A DNA stretch of 64,000 bases, from contig OY969811.1 in the NCBI GenBank assembly GCA_963703315.1, forward strand, positions 3,584,001-3,648,000, read 5' to 3'. Positions 1,100-8,236 of this stretch are shown here, piece after piece. A model generated the notes under the pieces. The model saw only the letters and a program-made list of their open reading frames with translations. It was not told where the DNA came from and made no database searches. This stretch comes from an uncultured cyanobacterium. GTDB taxonomy: Bacteria; Cyanobacteriota; Cyanobacteriia; Pseudanabaenales; Pseudanabaenaceae. The position numbers and the translations under genes were made by a program. Numbering within the stretch: position 1 is the first letter of the stretch; the number at the start of each line of letters is the position of its first letter.

Positions 1100-1160
1100 A
1101 AAAATTGGCGGCACGGCAAAGTCGCACCGCCAATTTTCGTAATTATAGTTGGTATTGATT

Positions 1161-2078
1161 ATGGTGCAAGGATTTGTTCGCTTCTTTACGAAGATTGATT
1201 ATTTACTGCGTGAGACTTTTTTAGGATTGCGGCGTGGTGGTTGGATGAACTGGGCTGCCATTAGTACTGTGGCGGTGTTGTTGTTTCTATTTGGAGCAAG
1301 TTTACAAATTTCTTGGCAGTTGGAAAATGTGTTAGGTCAACTAGGCAGCCAGTTAGAAATATCAGTTTATCTTGACAAAAATACGGTAGGTGAGTCGATG
1401 CAGCCACGCTTACTCTTGATCGATGGAGTGGCTTCTGCACGACTCATTCCCAAAGAAGATGCATGGCAGAATTTGATGAAGGATCTCGGTAAAAATGATC
1501 TTAATCAGGCAACGCAGCAGATTGGGGGCAATCCTTTAGTTGATGAGTTTAAGGTAAGAGCAGTATCTAGCGATCGCGTGCCAGACATTGCGAAACGGAT
1601 TTCTGGTTTACAGGGCATTGATGAAGTGTGGTACACCAATGAAGTCGTGGAGCGTATTGGGCAGCTACGTCGAGCGTTGAGTAATAGCAGTGTGGCGATC
1701 GTGGCGATTTTTACAGTAATTGCGATCGCGGTCATTACCACCACGATCCGACTGATTGTGTTGGCACGAAGGCGCGAGATTGAGGTGATGCAACTAGTGG
1801 GAGCGACGGCTACATGGATTTATTTCCCATTTGTACTGCAAGGTATATTTTTCGGAATTACGGGTGCAGGGACTGCTTATCTAATGCTGATGCTTGGTTT
1901 AAATCTATTAGGTGATGCGATCGTTAATCAACCAGAACTGATCAAATCACTCACGTTAGGTTTAACTACAGATTTGCGATCGCAACTTATTTTACCTGCG
2001 ATATTAGTAAGCTTTGGTTCTGTAATTGGAGTATTAGGTAGTTTGCTTGCTGTGAGAAGATTTTCTTTTAACTCTTGA
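1161..2078 (+). CDS. ftsX: Cell division permease FtsX
   Basis: 4-TM ABC permease layout, ITTTIRLIVLARRREIEVMQLVGAT motif; ATG at 1161 preferred to the TTG at 1149. Confidence 0.9.
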   Translation: MVQGFVRFFTKIDYLLRETFLGLRRGGWMNWAAISTVAVLLFLFGASLQISWQLENVLGQLGSQLEISVYLDKNTVGESMQPRLLLIDGVASARLIPKEDAWQNLMKDLGKNDLNQATQQIGGNPLVDEFKVRAVSSDRVPDIAKRISGLQGIDEVWYTNEVVERIGQLRRALSNSSVAIVAIFTVIAIAVITTTIRLIVLARRREIEVMQLVGATATWIYFPFVLQGIFFGITGAGTAYLMLMLGLNLLGDAIVNQPELIKSLTLGLTTDLRSQLILPAILVSFGSVIGVLGSLLAVRRFSFNS

Positions 2079-2118
2079 TGTTCAATCGTTTATAAAAAGT
2101 TGTAGTGAACGTTTAAAG

Positions 2119-2190
2119 GCGATCGCCCCTTTATCTATCCATCACAAAGCGATCGCCTTCAACCAAATATCAACAAACTGCGATCGCCTA
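2119..2190. repeat. Tandem ~30-bp HIP1-cored repeat cluster 1 (3 units)
   Basis: GCGATCGC at 2119, 2149 and 2180 with related C/A-rich linkers (e.g. CTTCAACCAAATATCAACAAACT). Confidence 0.9.
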
Positions 2191-2205
2191 CTTCCTCTCA
2201 AAAAA

Positions 2206-2544
2206 TCATTCACCCAAGTTGACCAAAGATAATTTGACACAATTTCTAACGCCTTGACTATCTTGTTCCGATAACTTCCCAATGACAACCAAGTTAGCTG
2301 ATGGAGGCAATGTCACAATAAAGCTACGGAAAACAGATGGAACTCTCAGTCCTGATTTTTGCCAATCTTGAAGTACATAATCCGTCACACCTAAATTTTT
2401 GGTCTGTGAGGTTATAAGCCCGACAATTACATCAGGACGATTTGCATGATATATTTCCGAAGATAATACAACTGCTGGACGGCGTTTGATACCAGTAACA
2501 GCAGGAAAATCAACTGTTACTACATCACCAGATTTCACTTTCAC
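2206..2544 (-). CDS. PemK/MazF-family toxin (type II TA)
   Basis: GDVVTVDFP...KRRPAVVLS N-terminal motif, 112 aa, overlaps upstream small gene by 4 nt. Confidence 0.85.
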   Translation of the reverse strand: MKVKSGDVVTVDFPAVTGIKRRPAVVLSSEIYHANRPDVIVGLITSQTKNLGVTDYVLQDWQKSGLRVPSVFRSFIVTLPPSANLVVIGKLSEQDSQGVRNCVKLSLVNLGE

Positions 2545-2765
2545 TCAACTATCTCCTCATCGTCAAGAAAAGAAGTTACTGCATATTGGAGAGAAAAAGC
2601 AGCTAAATCTAATTGATCCTGCTCTGTCCAAGTGTCGCTATCATCAATAACAGCAACATCTTGTTTGATTAAGCCGTTAAGAATTAATGTCGCTAACTGT
2701 AGTCTCTCAGTTGGCGGAAGATTTGAAATAACTTGTCTATAGATTTCCTGAACAGCTTTTGGCAT
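2541..2765 (-). CDS. Putative antitoxin partner of the PemK/MazF toxin
   Basis: 74-aa acidic protein translationally coupled to the toxin (GTGA overlap). Confidence 0.7.
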   Translation of the reverse strand: MPKAVQEIYRQVISNLPPTERLQLATLILNGLIKQDVAVIDDSDTWTEQDQLDLAAFSLQYAVTSFLDDEEIVE

Positions 2766-2819
2766 AAAACATTTTCAATGACAGGATATTAAATTACAAG
2801 ACTACATACATTCTAATCT

Positions 2820-2890
2820 GCGATCGCCTTAAACATAATTTTTCAAAAGCGATCGCCTCAACCAAATATCAACAACCAGCGATCGCCTCT
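2820..2890. repeat. Tandem ~30-bp HIP1-cored repeat cluster 2 (3 units)
   Basis: GCGATCGC at 2820, 2849 and 2879; linker CTCAACCAAATATCAACAACCA nearly identical to cluster 1. Confidence 0.9.
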
Positions 2891-3122
2891 AATTGGAATG
2901 ACTAACTGCTAAATGTTCAGCAAGGGAGGTTTGAACAACTGTTTGGGGGGTTACTCCTAAACGTTTTGCTTCTTGATTAATTAGCTCAATCATCCAGACA
3001 GGTAAATCGATGCTAAGCCTTTTTTGAGTAGATAAGGGACGTTTAGCTTGAGATAAATCAAGCATCTCGATGATATCTTCTTCTCCATCGTCAAATTTTT
3101 GGTCAAATTCCTTGGAGTTCAT
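2889..3122 (-). CDS. BrnA/CopG-like antitoxin
   Basis: MNSKEFDQKFDDGEEDIIEMLDLSQAKRP...RLSIDLPVWMIELINQEAKRLGV ribbon-helix-helix pattern; likely true start is the ATG at 3122, not 3248. Confidence 0.8.
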   Translation of the reverse strand: MNSKEFDQKFDDGEEDIIEMLDLSQAKRPLSTQKRLSIDLPVWMIELINQEAKRLGVTPQTVVQTSLAEHLAVSHSN

Positions 3123-3210
3123 AAATGGAAACCTCTTGTGTGCGTGATCGGCGGACAGATATGCTCCGAATATTTTGATCTCGGTAGGTGATAACTCCAG
3201 ACCAATCGCG
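3103..3210 (-). pseudogene. 3' remnant of a BrnT-like toxin gene
   Basis: Alternative frame reads RDWSGVITYRDQNIRSISVRRSRTQEVSIYELQGI*, resembling BrnT C-termini; in-frame TAA just upstream and no start codon. Confidence 0.75.
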
Positions 3211-3234
3211 GACAGTAGGTTTTGAAACGTATTA

Positions 3235-3272
3235 CGAATCGCCCCCAATCAAAATCAACAAACTGCGATCGC
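3235..3272. repeat. HIP1-cored repeat cluster 3 (one intact and one degenerate unit)
   Basis: CGAATCGC at 3235 and GCGATCGC at 3265, 30 bp apart, linker CCCCAATCAAAATCAACAAACT. Confidence 0.8.
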
Positions 3273-3340
3273 TTCTTAGATTTCGCGTAAATGTTACACT
3301 TGGTAAGTTCATATTTATATTTTATCTAGACCAATGACCT

Positions 3341-3598
3341 ATGCCCGTTATTAGTCGGTTTTTGGGAATTGCGATCTATATGTATTGGAATGATCATTTA
3401 CCTCCTCACTATCATGCAAAATATGGTGAGTATGAAATTATTATTGAAATTGAGACTGGTGTGATAACTGGTTCATTTCCAAAACGTGCATTACGTCATG
3501 TTTTAGAATGGCATGATTTACATCAATCCGAGTTGATGGCTAATTGGGAACTTTGCCGTCAGCAAGAAGAACTAAAATCTATTTTTCCTCTGGAGTAA
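3341..3598 (+). CDS. DUF4160-family protein (putative TA toxin component)
   Basis: MPVISRFLGIAIYMYWNDHLPPHYHAKYG motif. Confidence 0.85.
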   Translation: MPVISRFLGIAIYMYWNDHLPPHYHAKYGEYEIIIEIETGVITGSFPKRALRHVLEWHDLHQSELMANWELCRQQEELKSIFPLE

Positions 3599-3602
3599 GG
3601 TT

Positions 3603-3911
3603 ATGTTTCTAAATATTATTTCTGCTCATTATATTGATCGCTACAGGATTGAAATTCAATTCAACGATAGTCGTATAGGAACTGTAGATTTATGCAATAG
3701 CTTAAAGGGTAAAGTTTTTCAACCTTTACAAGATTTATCATTGTTTCAACAGTTTGAGGTTGATGCTGAACTTGGGACAATCCATTGGTCAAATGGTGCG
3801 GACTTTGCTCCTGAATATCTATATTTTCTTGCATTCCGTGATTTACCTGAGTTACAAGAACAGTTTCAAAAATGGGGTTATTTACCCGCTAAAGTTGCGC
3901 TGAACGTGTAA
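3603..3911 (+). CDS. DUF2442-family protein (putative TA partner)
   Basis: YRIEIQFND...GKVFQPLQD...GTIHWSNGADFAPEYLY; usual partner of DUF4160. Confidence 0.85.
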   Translation: MFLNIISAHYIDRYRIEIQFNDSRIGTVDLCNSLKGKVFQPLQDLSLFQQFEVDAELGTIHWSNGADFAPEYLYFLAFRDLPELQEQFQKWGYLPAKVALNV

Positions 3912-3913
3912 AG

Positions 3914-4010
3914 GCGATCGCCTCTAATCAAATCAACAAATAGCGATCGCCCCTTCATCTCCCCACAACAAAGCGATCGCCCCTAATCAAATATCAATAG
4001 CAATGATCAC
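3914..4010. repeat. Tandem ~30-bp HIP1-cored repeat cluster 4 (3 intact and 1 degenerate unit)
   Basis: GCGATCGC at 3914, 3943 and 3973, ATGATCAC at 4003; linkers CYCTAATCAAAT(A)TCAA. Confidence 0.9.
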
Positions 4011-4053
4011 CTCTTTAGGATGAGACAAATACAGAAATTCACAAACAACACAT

Positions 4054-4923
4054 TTAGTTAATAATAATATTGTCGAATTTTATTTGACGTGTATAAGTTA
4101 CTACTATCAATGAATTTAGTTCAGTAACTGAACTAGGAACTGTAAAATTCATACTTACATCGTAGGTTGATCCTTTTTGCATCTCGCGCTCTAAAGTACT
4201 CCCTCTATATTCCTTAGAATTGACAAAAATCGCATAATTCACAAGATACTCACGACCTTGACGGTCTGTCATTTTATTACTGTCATATAGACGTAAACCA
4301 TAATCTTTACGTTCTTTAATTGTAGTAAGTACAAAAGAGCAATTAACATATGCCTGTTGTCTCGCACATTTTTTAAATTCCCACGTTACGTCATCATCTA
4401 CTTGAATAGGATTACTAACACGAGGATTGCTGCTAGGACTAGCAGTAATGATGGGACTTGGCGTACTACTGGGACTTGCTTTAGGAGTAGCTTCTACAAT
4501 GGTTGGAGCTGTTGGTTTAGGATTTATATAAGTCTCTACAGCTTCTTCTAAAACTTTAACTTTACTATCCTGTGTAACTGATACTCCTTTAGATTCAAGA
4601 TATTTATCTATGTTTTTAATTGTATTCGGTGAAAGGCTGACAAGAGAAGAATCCACTTTTGACGGATCTTTGGAAATGATCTCATTCACATTATCTCCCC
4701 CACTTTTAAAGCCCGTTAGAATTCCAGCCGCAAGTGCCGAAAATGTAAGTGCTAAAAAGAAAAGTATCATGTAGAGAAATATTCTTTCCTTTTGTTTTGG
4801 CTCGGCTTTTCCAAAGAGCAGGAAAACTATAAATGCAATTACAATAGCAACTAGAGCAAAAACTCCAAACAGGCTTCCAGAATTTGCGAGAATCTGAGGA
4901 AGATTGTTAATTAAATTTCCCAT
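4054..4923 (-). CDS. Hypothetical membrane-anchored protein (2 N-terminal TM helices, Pro/Ser/Thr linker, beta-rich C-terminal domain)
   Basis: 289-aa ORF, AT-rich, no HIP1 site seen inside. Confidence 0.7.
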   Translation of the reverse strand: MGNLINNLPQILANSGSLFGVFALVAIVIAFIVFLLFGKAEPKQKERIFLYMILFFLALTFSALAAGILTGFKSGGDNVNEIISKDPSKVDSSLVSLSPNTIKNIDKYLESKGVSVTQDSKVKVLEEAVETYINPKPTAPTIVEATPKASPSSTPSPIITASPSSNPRVSNPIQVDDDVTWEFKKCARQQAYVNCSFVLTTIKERKDYGLRLYDSNKMTDRQGREYLVNYAIFVNSKEYRGSTLEREMQKGSTYDVSMNFTVPSSVTELNSLIVVTYTRQIKFDNIIIN

Positions 4924-4953
4924 TTAGGTTACCTATAAATCTAACTTAGCAAT

Positions 4954-4991
4954 AAAAAAAGAGAGGATGCATCGGCAACCTCTCTTTTTTT
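4954..4991. terminator. Intrinsic terminator after rbcS
   Basis: AAAAAAAGAGAGG...CCTCTCTTTTTTT hairpin with A/T tails. Confidence 0.75.
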
Positions 4992-5000
4992 GTTTAAAGC

Positions 5001-5336
5001 TTAGTAACGAGCGCTGTTAGGCTTGTGTACGATGAAGCTTTGAACTTGGCACTGCTTGATGTTGTCGAAAGCAACAACACGGATAAAGCTACCAGGATAG
5101 CTAGAACGGCAAGCTTGAACTTCGCTCAAAACTTCTTGAGGAGTTCTGGCGTTGAACAAGGGCAACTTCCAAAGAGTCCAGTAGTGAACAGCAGGATCGG
5201 AATCTTCGTTAAATTCGATCGCAGGATAGAAACCTTGCTTCAAGGTGTACTCGATTTGACGAGTGATTTGAGCATCGCTCAAAGGGGGAAGATAAGAAAG
5301 AGTTTCGTAACGACGCTCTTTAGGTAAAGTTTGCAT
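5001..5336 (-). CDS. rbcS: RuBisCO small subunit
   Basis: [29 protein letters not shown]. Confidence 0.98.
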
Positions 5337-8061: not shown

Positions 8062-8236
8062 AACTCTTATATAAATAAGAAATGATTGAGTTTGATCGGT
8101 CTTTGTTGATCAATAACTGTTAATTTGATTAGAGTATTTATACTTATAGCAATCCATTGGCGATCGCAATTTATAGGGCTTTTCCAGCGATAAAATCTGT
8201 GGCATCGCCTTGGGCGATGCCACAGATTTTATATGG

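Follow-up and report, generated by a model that had tools for sequence, protein, structure and literature searches.

How are small toxin-antitoxin (TA) cassettes gathered, kept and reordered behind rbcS in a cyanobacterial genome that encodes no integron integrase? The question is raised by a stretch of 64,000 nucleotides (the window; G000:C1:3584001-3648000, contig OY969811.1) from G000, the 4.57-Mb single-contig genome of an uncultured member of the Pseudanabaenaceae. Behind rbcS, three TA cassettes and one large variable gene are parted by four tracts on the same strand, each composed of the octamer highly iterated palindrome 1 (HIP1) plus G-poor linkers. The initial annotation had proposed that these tracts bound the cassettes of an integron-like array. 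As detailed below, tract arrays are a real and apparently undescribed cassette platform, in kind one of repeat-promoted gene exchange. Throughout, G-numbers denote the genomes of the genus (Pseudanabaena) that were compared, and L-numbers denote extracted loci or contigs.

HIP1 occurs at 8231 sites in G000 (1.8 per kb). Exact HIP1 triplets at 24–37 bp spacing number 31, as compared with 5.2 expected from a Poisson distribution, and only one of the 31 lies within a long open reading frame (ORF); the tracts are therefore not due to chance. In each of the four tracts of the window, C and A predominate in the linkers on the + strand. Of 7923 linker bases counted, 356 (4.5%) are G on one strand. 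Linkers are 16–29 nt in length and nearly unstructured by folding. Tract strands fold only through HIP1-HIP1 stems with ~21-nt loops, and the arms around HIP1 are not inverted repeats. About 15 loci of this layout occur among the matches listed for G000, with linkers in differing ‘dialects’: A and B units of 29–31 bp in the window, units of 26–28 bp at 443, 2190, and 2252 kb, units of 27/35/35 bp at 1370 and 4366 kb, and others. Since unit length depends on dialect, the period of three helical turns (29–31 bp) first described is confined to the window locus, and intergenic spacings span 24–37 bp. Unit-to-unit identity averages 0.68–0.76, and unit counts range from 0 to 21. The longest tract in G000 (G000:C1:1371740-1372234) has 15 units of three alternating types and no gene inside.

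The tracts are enriched at small TA genes throughout the genome, as had been predicted. Among the neighbours of 23 multi-unit tracts outside long ORFs (22 listed with both neighbours), 31 of 45 are ≤160 amino acids, versus a background of 28%. For the array ORFs of G000 (83 hand-picked from 116), 51 have a Pfam match, and 27 of these belong to named TA families by manual count.

The flanks of the array were defined by comparison across the genus. ftsX and rbcS had been taken as conserved flanks whose interval could be aligned between strains. However, the interval is not syntenic in relatives: in 20 loci surveyed from 21 genus matches to ftsX, other genes follow, and rbcS was not found after ftsX in any of the 20 (four ended early at contig ends). 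We used rbcS as the anchor instead, taking its downstream stretch from 40 of 45 other matching genus genomes, which yielded 36 loci with ≥2.4 kb, G000 included. A tract lies behind rbcS in 32 of the 36 loci and two or more tracts in 25, all on the same strand. The plan is constant: after rbcS come small modules, grouped in a zone together with a single large variable gene, then tract-cassette-tract, and lastly a species-specific neighbour. rbcS anchors the array across the genus, and ftsX is not a conserved flank. In G006, a second rbcS 3′ end and terminator are located ~400 bp downstream of rbcS (L037, G006:C1:1340831-1340930); this duplicated tail is likely an insertion scar.

A second array occurs upstream of icd (20 of 36 matches surveyed, plus the locus of G000 itself). 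A tract was found by the general detector in 19 of 21 loci, one being a single unit on the opposite strand, and 13 of 35 segments are shared. In G000 (L105, G000:C1:4508700-4522400), icd and a GmrSD/HEPN slot lie inside the array, with a HIP1 site 30 bp past the icd stop codon linking to the tract; this differs from the 20 relatives examined, in which tracts are upstream of icd. L105 also has two different slot genes, as if two alleles had merged. ftsH was rejected as an anchor of the array at 3670 kb, as 6 of 21 loci have any tract and the array occurs in G000 only; ftsH is a distal end, like ftsX.

Cassettes are shared and reordered between species, in agreement with the proposal that tracts are their boundaries. 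At rbcS, 11 families that are common end to end between species account for 41 of the 55 inter-tract segments, most of which are 560–670 bp in length. The order is C-I’-A in G000, F-C-x-A-G in G023, E-G-C in G061, x-G-C-B-F in G050, E-A-B in G045, and B-F in G046, and 7 of the 11 cassette pairs met at least twice were found in both orders. Among pairs of the same flank type, only 6 of 111 and 6 of 161 have the same partner beyond a tract, as compared with 66 of 108 for the partner beyond a whole cassette, which is ~7 times longer. Breakpoints had been expected inside the repeats and are indeed concentrated in the tracts. Of 154 alignment ends, 115 are located at a cassette edge and 39 within cassettes.

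Cassette ends are sharp and conserved. They retain their own first three HIP1 bases, and the last five HIP1 bases are conserved. A HicAB cassette is present twice in one G000 array, with the copies 3.7 kb apart, 97.2% identical, and ending at HIP1. The signal for a unit travelling with its adjacent cassette, as attC does, is weak (0.76 vs 0.71–0.73). Cassette pools follow dialect: the rbcS and icd arrays have no segment in common, and each contributes a single cassette that matches other G000 arrays. In G057, G058, and G051, cassette A has a further location, where one tract was detected; some of its homologues have no tract.

Near-identical strains provide a closer view of change at the locus. 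Over the stretch that starts at rbcS and takes in cassettes E, A, and B, the metagenome contig L377 is nearly identical to G045 except for two mosaic patches, one of which has 21 changes in 200 bp within cassette A. Such short patches indicate that ordinary allele exchange is active at the locus. Beyond cassette B, L377 has a copy of the second tract of G045 and the last nine nucleotides of another A cassette, and then continues with sequence that in G045 opens a transposase gene. We take this gene to be IS256-like. The crossover can be placed inside the last HIP1, because the three preceding bases are those of the second tract and the following bases those of cassette B. The junction is the product expected of a circle or of an unequal crossover of the B-A block. 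L376 has six units where G045 has two; the unit number changes by whole units.

The tract-plus-TA design recurs in other cyanobacterial families. All 48 of the genus genomes scanned contain the single-unit pattern (0 with the reversed control), and a strict two-unit pattern was found in 8 of 301 phylum genomes, about half of which are outside the class, in five genera (control, 0). A scan of species representatives yielded at least 142 stretches; the 79 loci listed are all cyanobacterial by title, with Dolichospermum, Cronbergia, Sphaerospermopsis, Calothrix, Microcystis, Crocosphaera, Snowella, and Leptolyngbyaceae among them. In 21 such loci, 69 near-tract ORFs were hand-picked from 118, of which 44 have a Pfam match and 22 belong to TA families by manual count; several single tracts in these loci have no TA neighbour. 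Three of eight foreign loci hold cassettes that are 89–92% identical to those of Pseudanabaena over 499–702 bp. A HIP-like site lies at each end of two of these cassettes and at one end of the third. ftsX matches other families in short pieces only (68–79%). MazF homologues at 82% identity or less are without tracts. The viral contigs scanned contained no tract pattern, and a plasmid search gave two weak matches, both without a tract.

The initial annotation had noted that no integrase is nearby. Indeed, there is none in the locus and no IntI in G000, where the best TIGR02249 score is 32 bits versus a cut-off of 265. Within the genus, 23 of 48 genomes have IntI over the cut-off, as do 132 of 401 in the class, and the integrons of relatives have canonical attC sites of 84–88 nt. 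A model constructed from 10 attC sites of the genus recovered its positive controls and detected 0 in the window, 0 in the rbcS and icd arrays given to it, 3 elsewhere in G000, and 66 in G045. A single tract unit occurs within 1.5 kb at 2 of 57 intI loci. A recombinase tracking the repeat had also been anticipated, but unit counts do not depend on whether a genome has IntI (medians 21 and 26). G000 has two tyrosine recombinase genes, neither of which was retained as a candidate. One is XerC-like and the only intact tyrosine recombinase of G000; it is a core gene (46 of 48 genomes) and hence cannot track the repeat. The other, a TetR-integrase fusion beside the 4366-kb array (G000:C1:4367585-4368832), is likely inactive, its first catalytic Arg and His appearing by eye to be replaced. 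The XerC-like gene (G000:C1:1754114-1755637) encodes an extra N-terminal partial recombinase domain, giving ~510 amino acids across the genus, and is located beside a MazEF-like pair.

Integron parts and tracts do meet at some sites. In G000, a LysE integron cassette between two attC sites is nested among HIP1 tracts (L098, G000:C1:2746935-2747909), although the genome is without IntI. In L198 (1270-3683), a HIP1 tract comes after a broken intI, and beyond this tract lie a YefM/ParE pair, a further unit, and an attC. A large integron in G045 (G045:C1:3489000-3534900) has dozens of attC sites, many only ~215 bp apart, which suggests many very short or gene-less cassettes. Several Pseudanabaena intI genes (L316-L325) are preceded by two to four tandem ~40-bp repeats before the first cassette, likely the attI region.

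Table 1. Coordinates of the array and its neighbours in the window
Feature	Position	Strand	Description
ftsX	1149..2078	+	Pfam FtsX; distal neighbour, outside the system, not conserved beside the array
Stub of a DUF2442 cassette end	2096..2118	+	23 nt; 86% identity over 35 nt to 3891-3925; matches the ends of five family-C cassettes
Tract 1	2119..2187	+	3 HIP1; units B then A
Cassette A	2188..2819	-	MazF/PemK toxin 2206-2544 (Pfam PF02452, over cut-off) and likely antitoxin 2541-2765
Tract 2	2820..2886	+	3 HIP1; first unit is a variant found beside cassette A in 4 of 7 genomes
Cassette I, damaged	2887..3233	-	BrnA 2889-3122, intact; BrnT remnant 3118-3228, with internal deletions
Tract 3	3234..3272	+	One A unit; first HIP1 degenerate
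Cassette C	3273..3913	+	DUF4160 3341-3598 and DUF2442 3603-3911, both Pfam over cut-off
Tract 4	3914..4010	+	3 exact HIP1 and 1 degenerate; units A-B-A
Variable large-gene slot	4054..4923	-	289-amino acid predicted membrane-anchored protein, no known family
Terminator-like hairpin 3′ of rbcS	4951..4994	-	Inverted repeat
rbcS	5001..5336	-	Pfam; conserved array anchor across the genus

In the window itself (Table 1), the reported HIP1 positions are exact at 2119/2149/2180, 2820/2849/2879, 3265, and 3914/3943/3973, and degenerate at 3234–3241 and 4003. Tract 3 falls below the stricter tract detector and was entered by hand for the counts of rbcS loci. A tract cluster had been said to precede each accessory unit; because the genes face both ways, the tracts separate the units instead. 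As stated in the initial annotation, no HIP1 site lies inside the four accessory units. The flanking genes, however, are not rich in HIP1 either (ftsE 0, ftsX 3, rbcS 0, rbcX 1, rbcL 1), and the genes of other arrays do contain HIP1 (1.2/kb against 1.9/kb).

The gene assignments of PemK/MazF, BrnA, the BrnT stub, DUF4160, DUF2442, and the predicted membrane protein stand, while the likely antitoxin of cassette A is assigned by its position; this 74-amino acid protein matched no family over cut-off in Pfam and NCBIfam scans. Cassette A is common end to end to seven rbcS arrays and cassette C to five. BrnA matches NCBIfam NF047399 at 95 bits (cut-off 60), the BrnT remnant corresponds to residues 50–86 of the BrnT of a relative, and the full form of cassette I (563–565 bp) is present in G006 and G048. 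The stub before tract 1 is likely the remnant of a second DUF2442 cassette copy that was lost. The large gene next to rbcS has a GC content of 0.35 and encodes two predicted N-terminal membrane helices; in an atlas search, its product matched only hypothetical clusters, below 0.9. In relatives, this slot holds Mrr, a restriction-modification pair, caspase-FGE, ankyrin, and others. The hairpin 3′ of rbcS is unlike that common to the 11 relatives shown. Contigs from the read run that is the probable source match the window without differences (0) and are broken at two tracts, and a second run contains a 97% relative that has this ftsX-tract join as well. Joints in the other runs derive from tracts of other organisms and are not evidence of circles.

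The occurrence of the same cassettes in differing orders in related species makes the repeats likely swap points for host recombination. The mechanism we lean towards, with little more than even confidence and on comparative grounds, is that host recombination in tracts at or near HIP1, probably after natural transformation, reorders the ~600-bp TA cassettes, and not an integrase. DNA taken up from relatives, or the sister chromosome, would be the exchange partner, and pairing would be seeded by similar tract units, a shared cassette, or a conserved anchor gene. With linkers of 4.5% G on one strand, HIP1 is the sole stretch of strong pairing, and the exchange would be resolved at or beside this GC-rich site. 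As tracts are multi-unit, a single resident tract could serve as the pairing partner for the two ends of an incoming cassette, leading to insertion; an exchange involving two tracts would remove or duplicate cassettes, and addiction by the TA pairs would retain them. The other linker strand is TG-rich and may favour RecA, which we regard as a lead only; Escherichia coli RecA is reported to prefer TG-rich DNA (PMC3763553). recA, comEC, and dprA are present in G000, and comEC is present in five of five distant tract-bearing genomes. The smtB deletion has been reported to be bounded by HIP1 (according to citations in PMC4390886, PMC5861425, and the preprint of PMC13756078). HIP1 has also been reported to raise transformation in PCC 7002. 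The dialect-bound cassette pools favour exchange guided by homology over exchange at 8 bp only.

Several observations weigh against this mechanism. Four of the 36 rbcS loci have no tract, 39 alignment ends lie inside cassettes as noted above, and for several distal cassettes the far tract was not detected. Sharing and reordering also affect the small TA modules that lie before the first tract on the rbcS side, at joints that have no tract, and a 250-bp sub-module changes partners without one. A unit identity of 0.68–0.76 is low for RecA pairing, and three cassettes cross families despite differing dialects. Within the genus, shared cassettes are 90.8% identical as compared with 89.0% for icd (higher in 19 of 29 pairs), so that some of the sharing is explained by losses from ancestral arrays that were long. 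The genomes compared are kin, and the linkage and order counts, not being independent, are given without a P value. Lastly, the L377 junction rests on one short-read assembly and is a hint only.

The foremost alternative is that a dedicated or host site-specific activity, acting in trans, cuts and joins at HIP1, with circles being excised and inserted at any tract and linkers only marking used sites. The L377 junction is identical to the circle junction of a two-cassette block and lies inside one HIP1. The choice of neighbours looks almost free, and of the three cross-family cassettes, two have a HIP-like site at either end even though the dialects differ. The conserved last five HIP1 bases at cassette ends match the register reported for SDR5 insertion, and site-specific recombination at HIP1 has been reported in Synechococcus PCC 7002. 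We nevertheless consider this activity unlikely. The pools are largely dialect-bound, 8231 HIP1 sites exist in G000, and the arms around HIP1 are not inverted repeats, with folding limited to HIP1-HIP1 stems that have ~21-nt loops. The tyrosine recombinases of G000 are the core XerC-like gene and the TetR fusion, in which the first catalytic Arg and His seem by eye to be replaced, and a published gel shift found no HIP1-binding protein. A related proposal, doubtful but worth entertaining, is that of a so far undescribed cyanobacterial cassette system without an integrase, in which a host activity cuts and joins at linker-flagged HIP1 sites, excising and inserting TA and defence cassettes, also across families, with the dialects serving as address labels.

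The tracts may instead be passive, namely HIP1-seeded minisatellites or tiny mobile repeats located between TA genes at hot spots that shuffle by general and illegitimate recombination. Such a role would be consistent with the tract-free shuffling beside rbcS, the range of unit counts (0–21), the distant MazF homologues without tracts, and the second rbcS tail and terminator of G006, read as the scar of an anchor-driven insertion. We think it improbable given that breakpoints are concentrated in short tracts, cassette ends are sharp and conserved, several families have the tract design along with TA genes, and small genes make up 31 of the 45 neighbours of intergenic multi-unit tracts against a 28% background.

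It is very unlikely that the tracts act chiefly on expression, as insulators, RNA processing sites, or methylation-dependent sites between TA operons, with shuffling as a side effect. The strict single-strand orientation of each array and the avoidance of G (356 of 7923) do suggest a strand-specific constraint, but genes lie in either direction relative to the tract, unit number is highly variable, and folds are weak. That the array is an attC-site cluster without an integron integrase (CALIN), with degenerate attC used in trans by the IntI found in 23 of 48 genus genomes, is barely credible and largely refuted, despite the two real attC inside another G000 HIP1 array and the broken intI beside a tract in L198, since the genus attC model finds none in the window (versus 3 elsewhere in G000 and 66 in G045), 2 of 57 intI loci have a single tract unit within 1.5 kb, and G000 has no IntI, with which unit counts are not associated.

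‘Integron-like’ thus remains apt as an analogy of layout and fails as a statement of membership. Integrons and CALINs resemble the tract arrays in having small TA-rich cassettes, same-orientation boundary sites, shuffling, and a link to natural transformation (described in PMC4889954 and PMC12614218). The tract arrays have shared, reordered cassettes but neither the attC hairpin (RYYYAAC...GTTRRRY) nor IntI, and they differ in their multi-unit tandem boundaries and in genes that face both ways; real attC integrons co-exist with them in the genus and are different in appearance.

The closest design is that of the Neisseria intergenic mosaic element (NIME; dRS3/RS) arrays, as described in PMC1797815. 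In both, a short GC-rich repeat alternates with spacers of lower GC content, and the number of units varies. For NIMEs, exchange of the flanked genes with incoming DNA has been proposed in a naturally competent host, including the entry of array-flanked genes into arrays (PMC1797815). The NIME trait of raising recombination with incoming DNA would find comparative support for the tracts in partner linkage. However, dRS3 is a 20-bp repeat with 6-bp terminal inverted repeats from another phylum, whereas the tract core is the 8-bp HIP1. NIMEs flank surface-antigen genes at syntenic sites and are tied to allele divergence (PMC1797815), while the tracts delimit a pool of discrete TA cassettes with permuted order and locus-specific dialects.

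Other known systems are less similar. Reported HIP1-linked events (the smtB deletion, plasmid recombination in PCC 7002, and SDR5 insertion) share junctions at HIP1, with a possible register after the third base. They are single events or involve an element of 21 nt that is described as restricted to Nostocaceae, and the passages on them in PMC4390886, PMC5861425, and the preprint of PMC13756078 describe no cassette arrays. Compared by description only, SDR5 is a 21-nt structured element within HIP1, whereas tract linkers are 16–29 nt and nearly unstructured. Minimal mobile elements and homology-facilitated illegitimate recombination are described as placing variable genes by a conserved gene, with exchange by transformation and a homologous anchor plus short joint. 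Minimal mobile elements have conserved genes on both flanks; in the tract arrays, compared between species, one flank only is conserved and the distal neighbour differs (ftsX, ftsH, and the distal flanks of the rbcS loci), and the tract joints, unlike those of minimal mobile elements, are a dedicated repeat family. Acinetobacter pdif modules are small and often TA, have no integrase of their own, and depend on a host factor acting in trans for their movement; pdif sites are 28 bp, with paired XerC/XerD inverted arms, alternate in orientation, and reside on plasmids. This assignment was rejected, as tracts are chromosomal direct tandem repeats without inverted arms. A CRISPR array, which has a constant repeat, unique spacers, and cas genes, was also rejected, as the A and B units between HIP1 sites recur and the tracts have genes between them; no search for cas genes was made. 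We found no description of HIP1-tract cassette arrays in the literature searched, which did not cover subscription journals.

The function of HIP1 is described as having been open for three decades, and the arrays offer a natural substrate on which to address it: the HIP1 sites, linkers, and methylation of a ~90-bp tract can be varied against cassette capture. If cutting and joining at HIP1 were true, it would give HIP1 a defined molecular job and establish a second cassette platform beside integrons. The tracts could also serve as landing pads for engineering. More broadly, the arrays show freshwater cyanobacteria, bloom-forming genera included, stocking and trading TA and restriction genes without an integrase.

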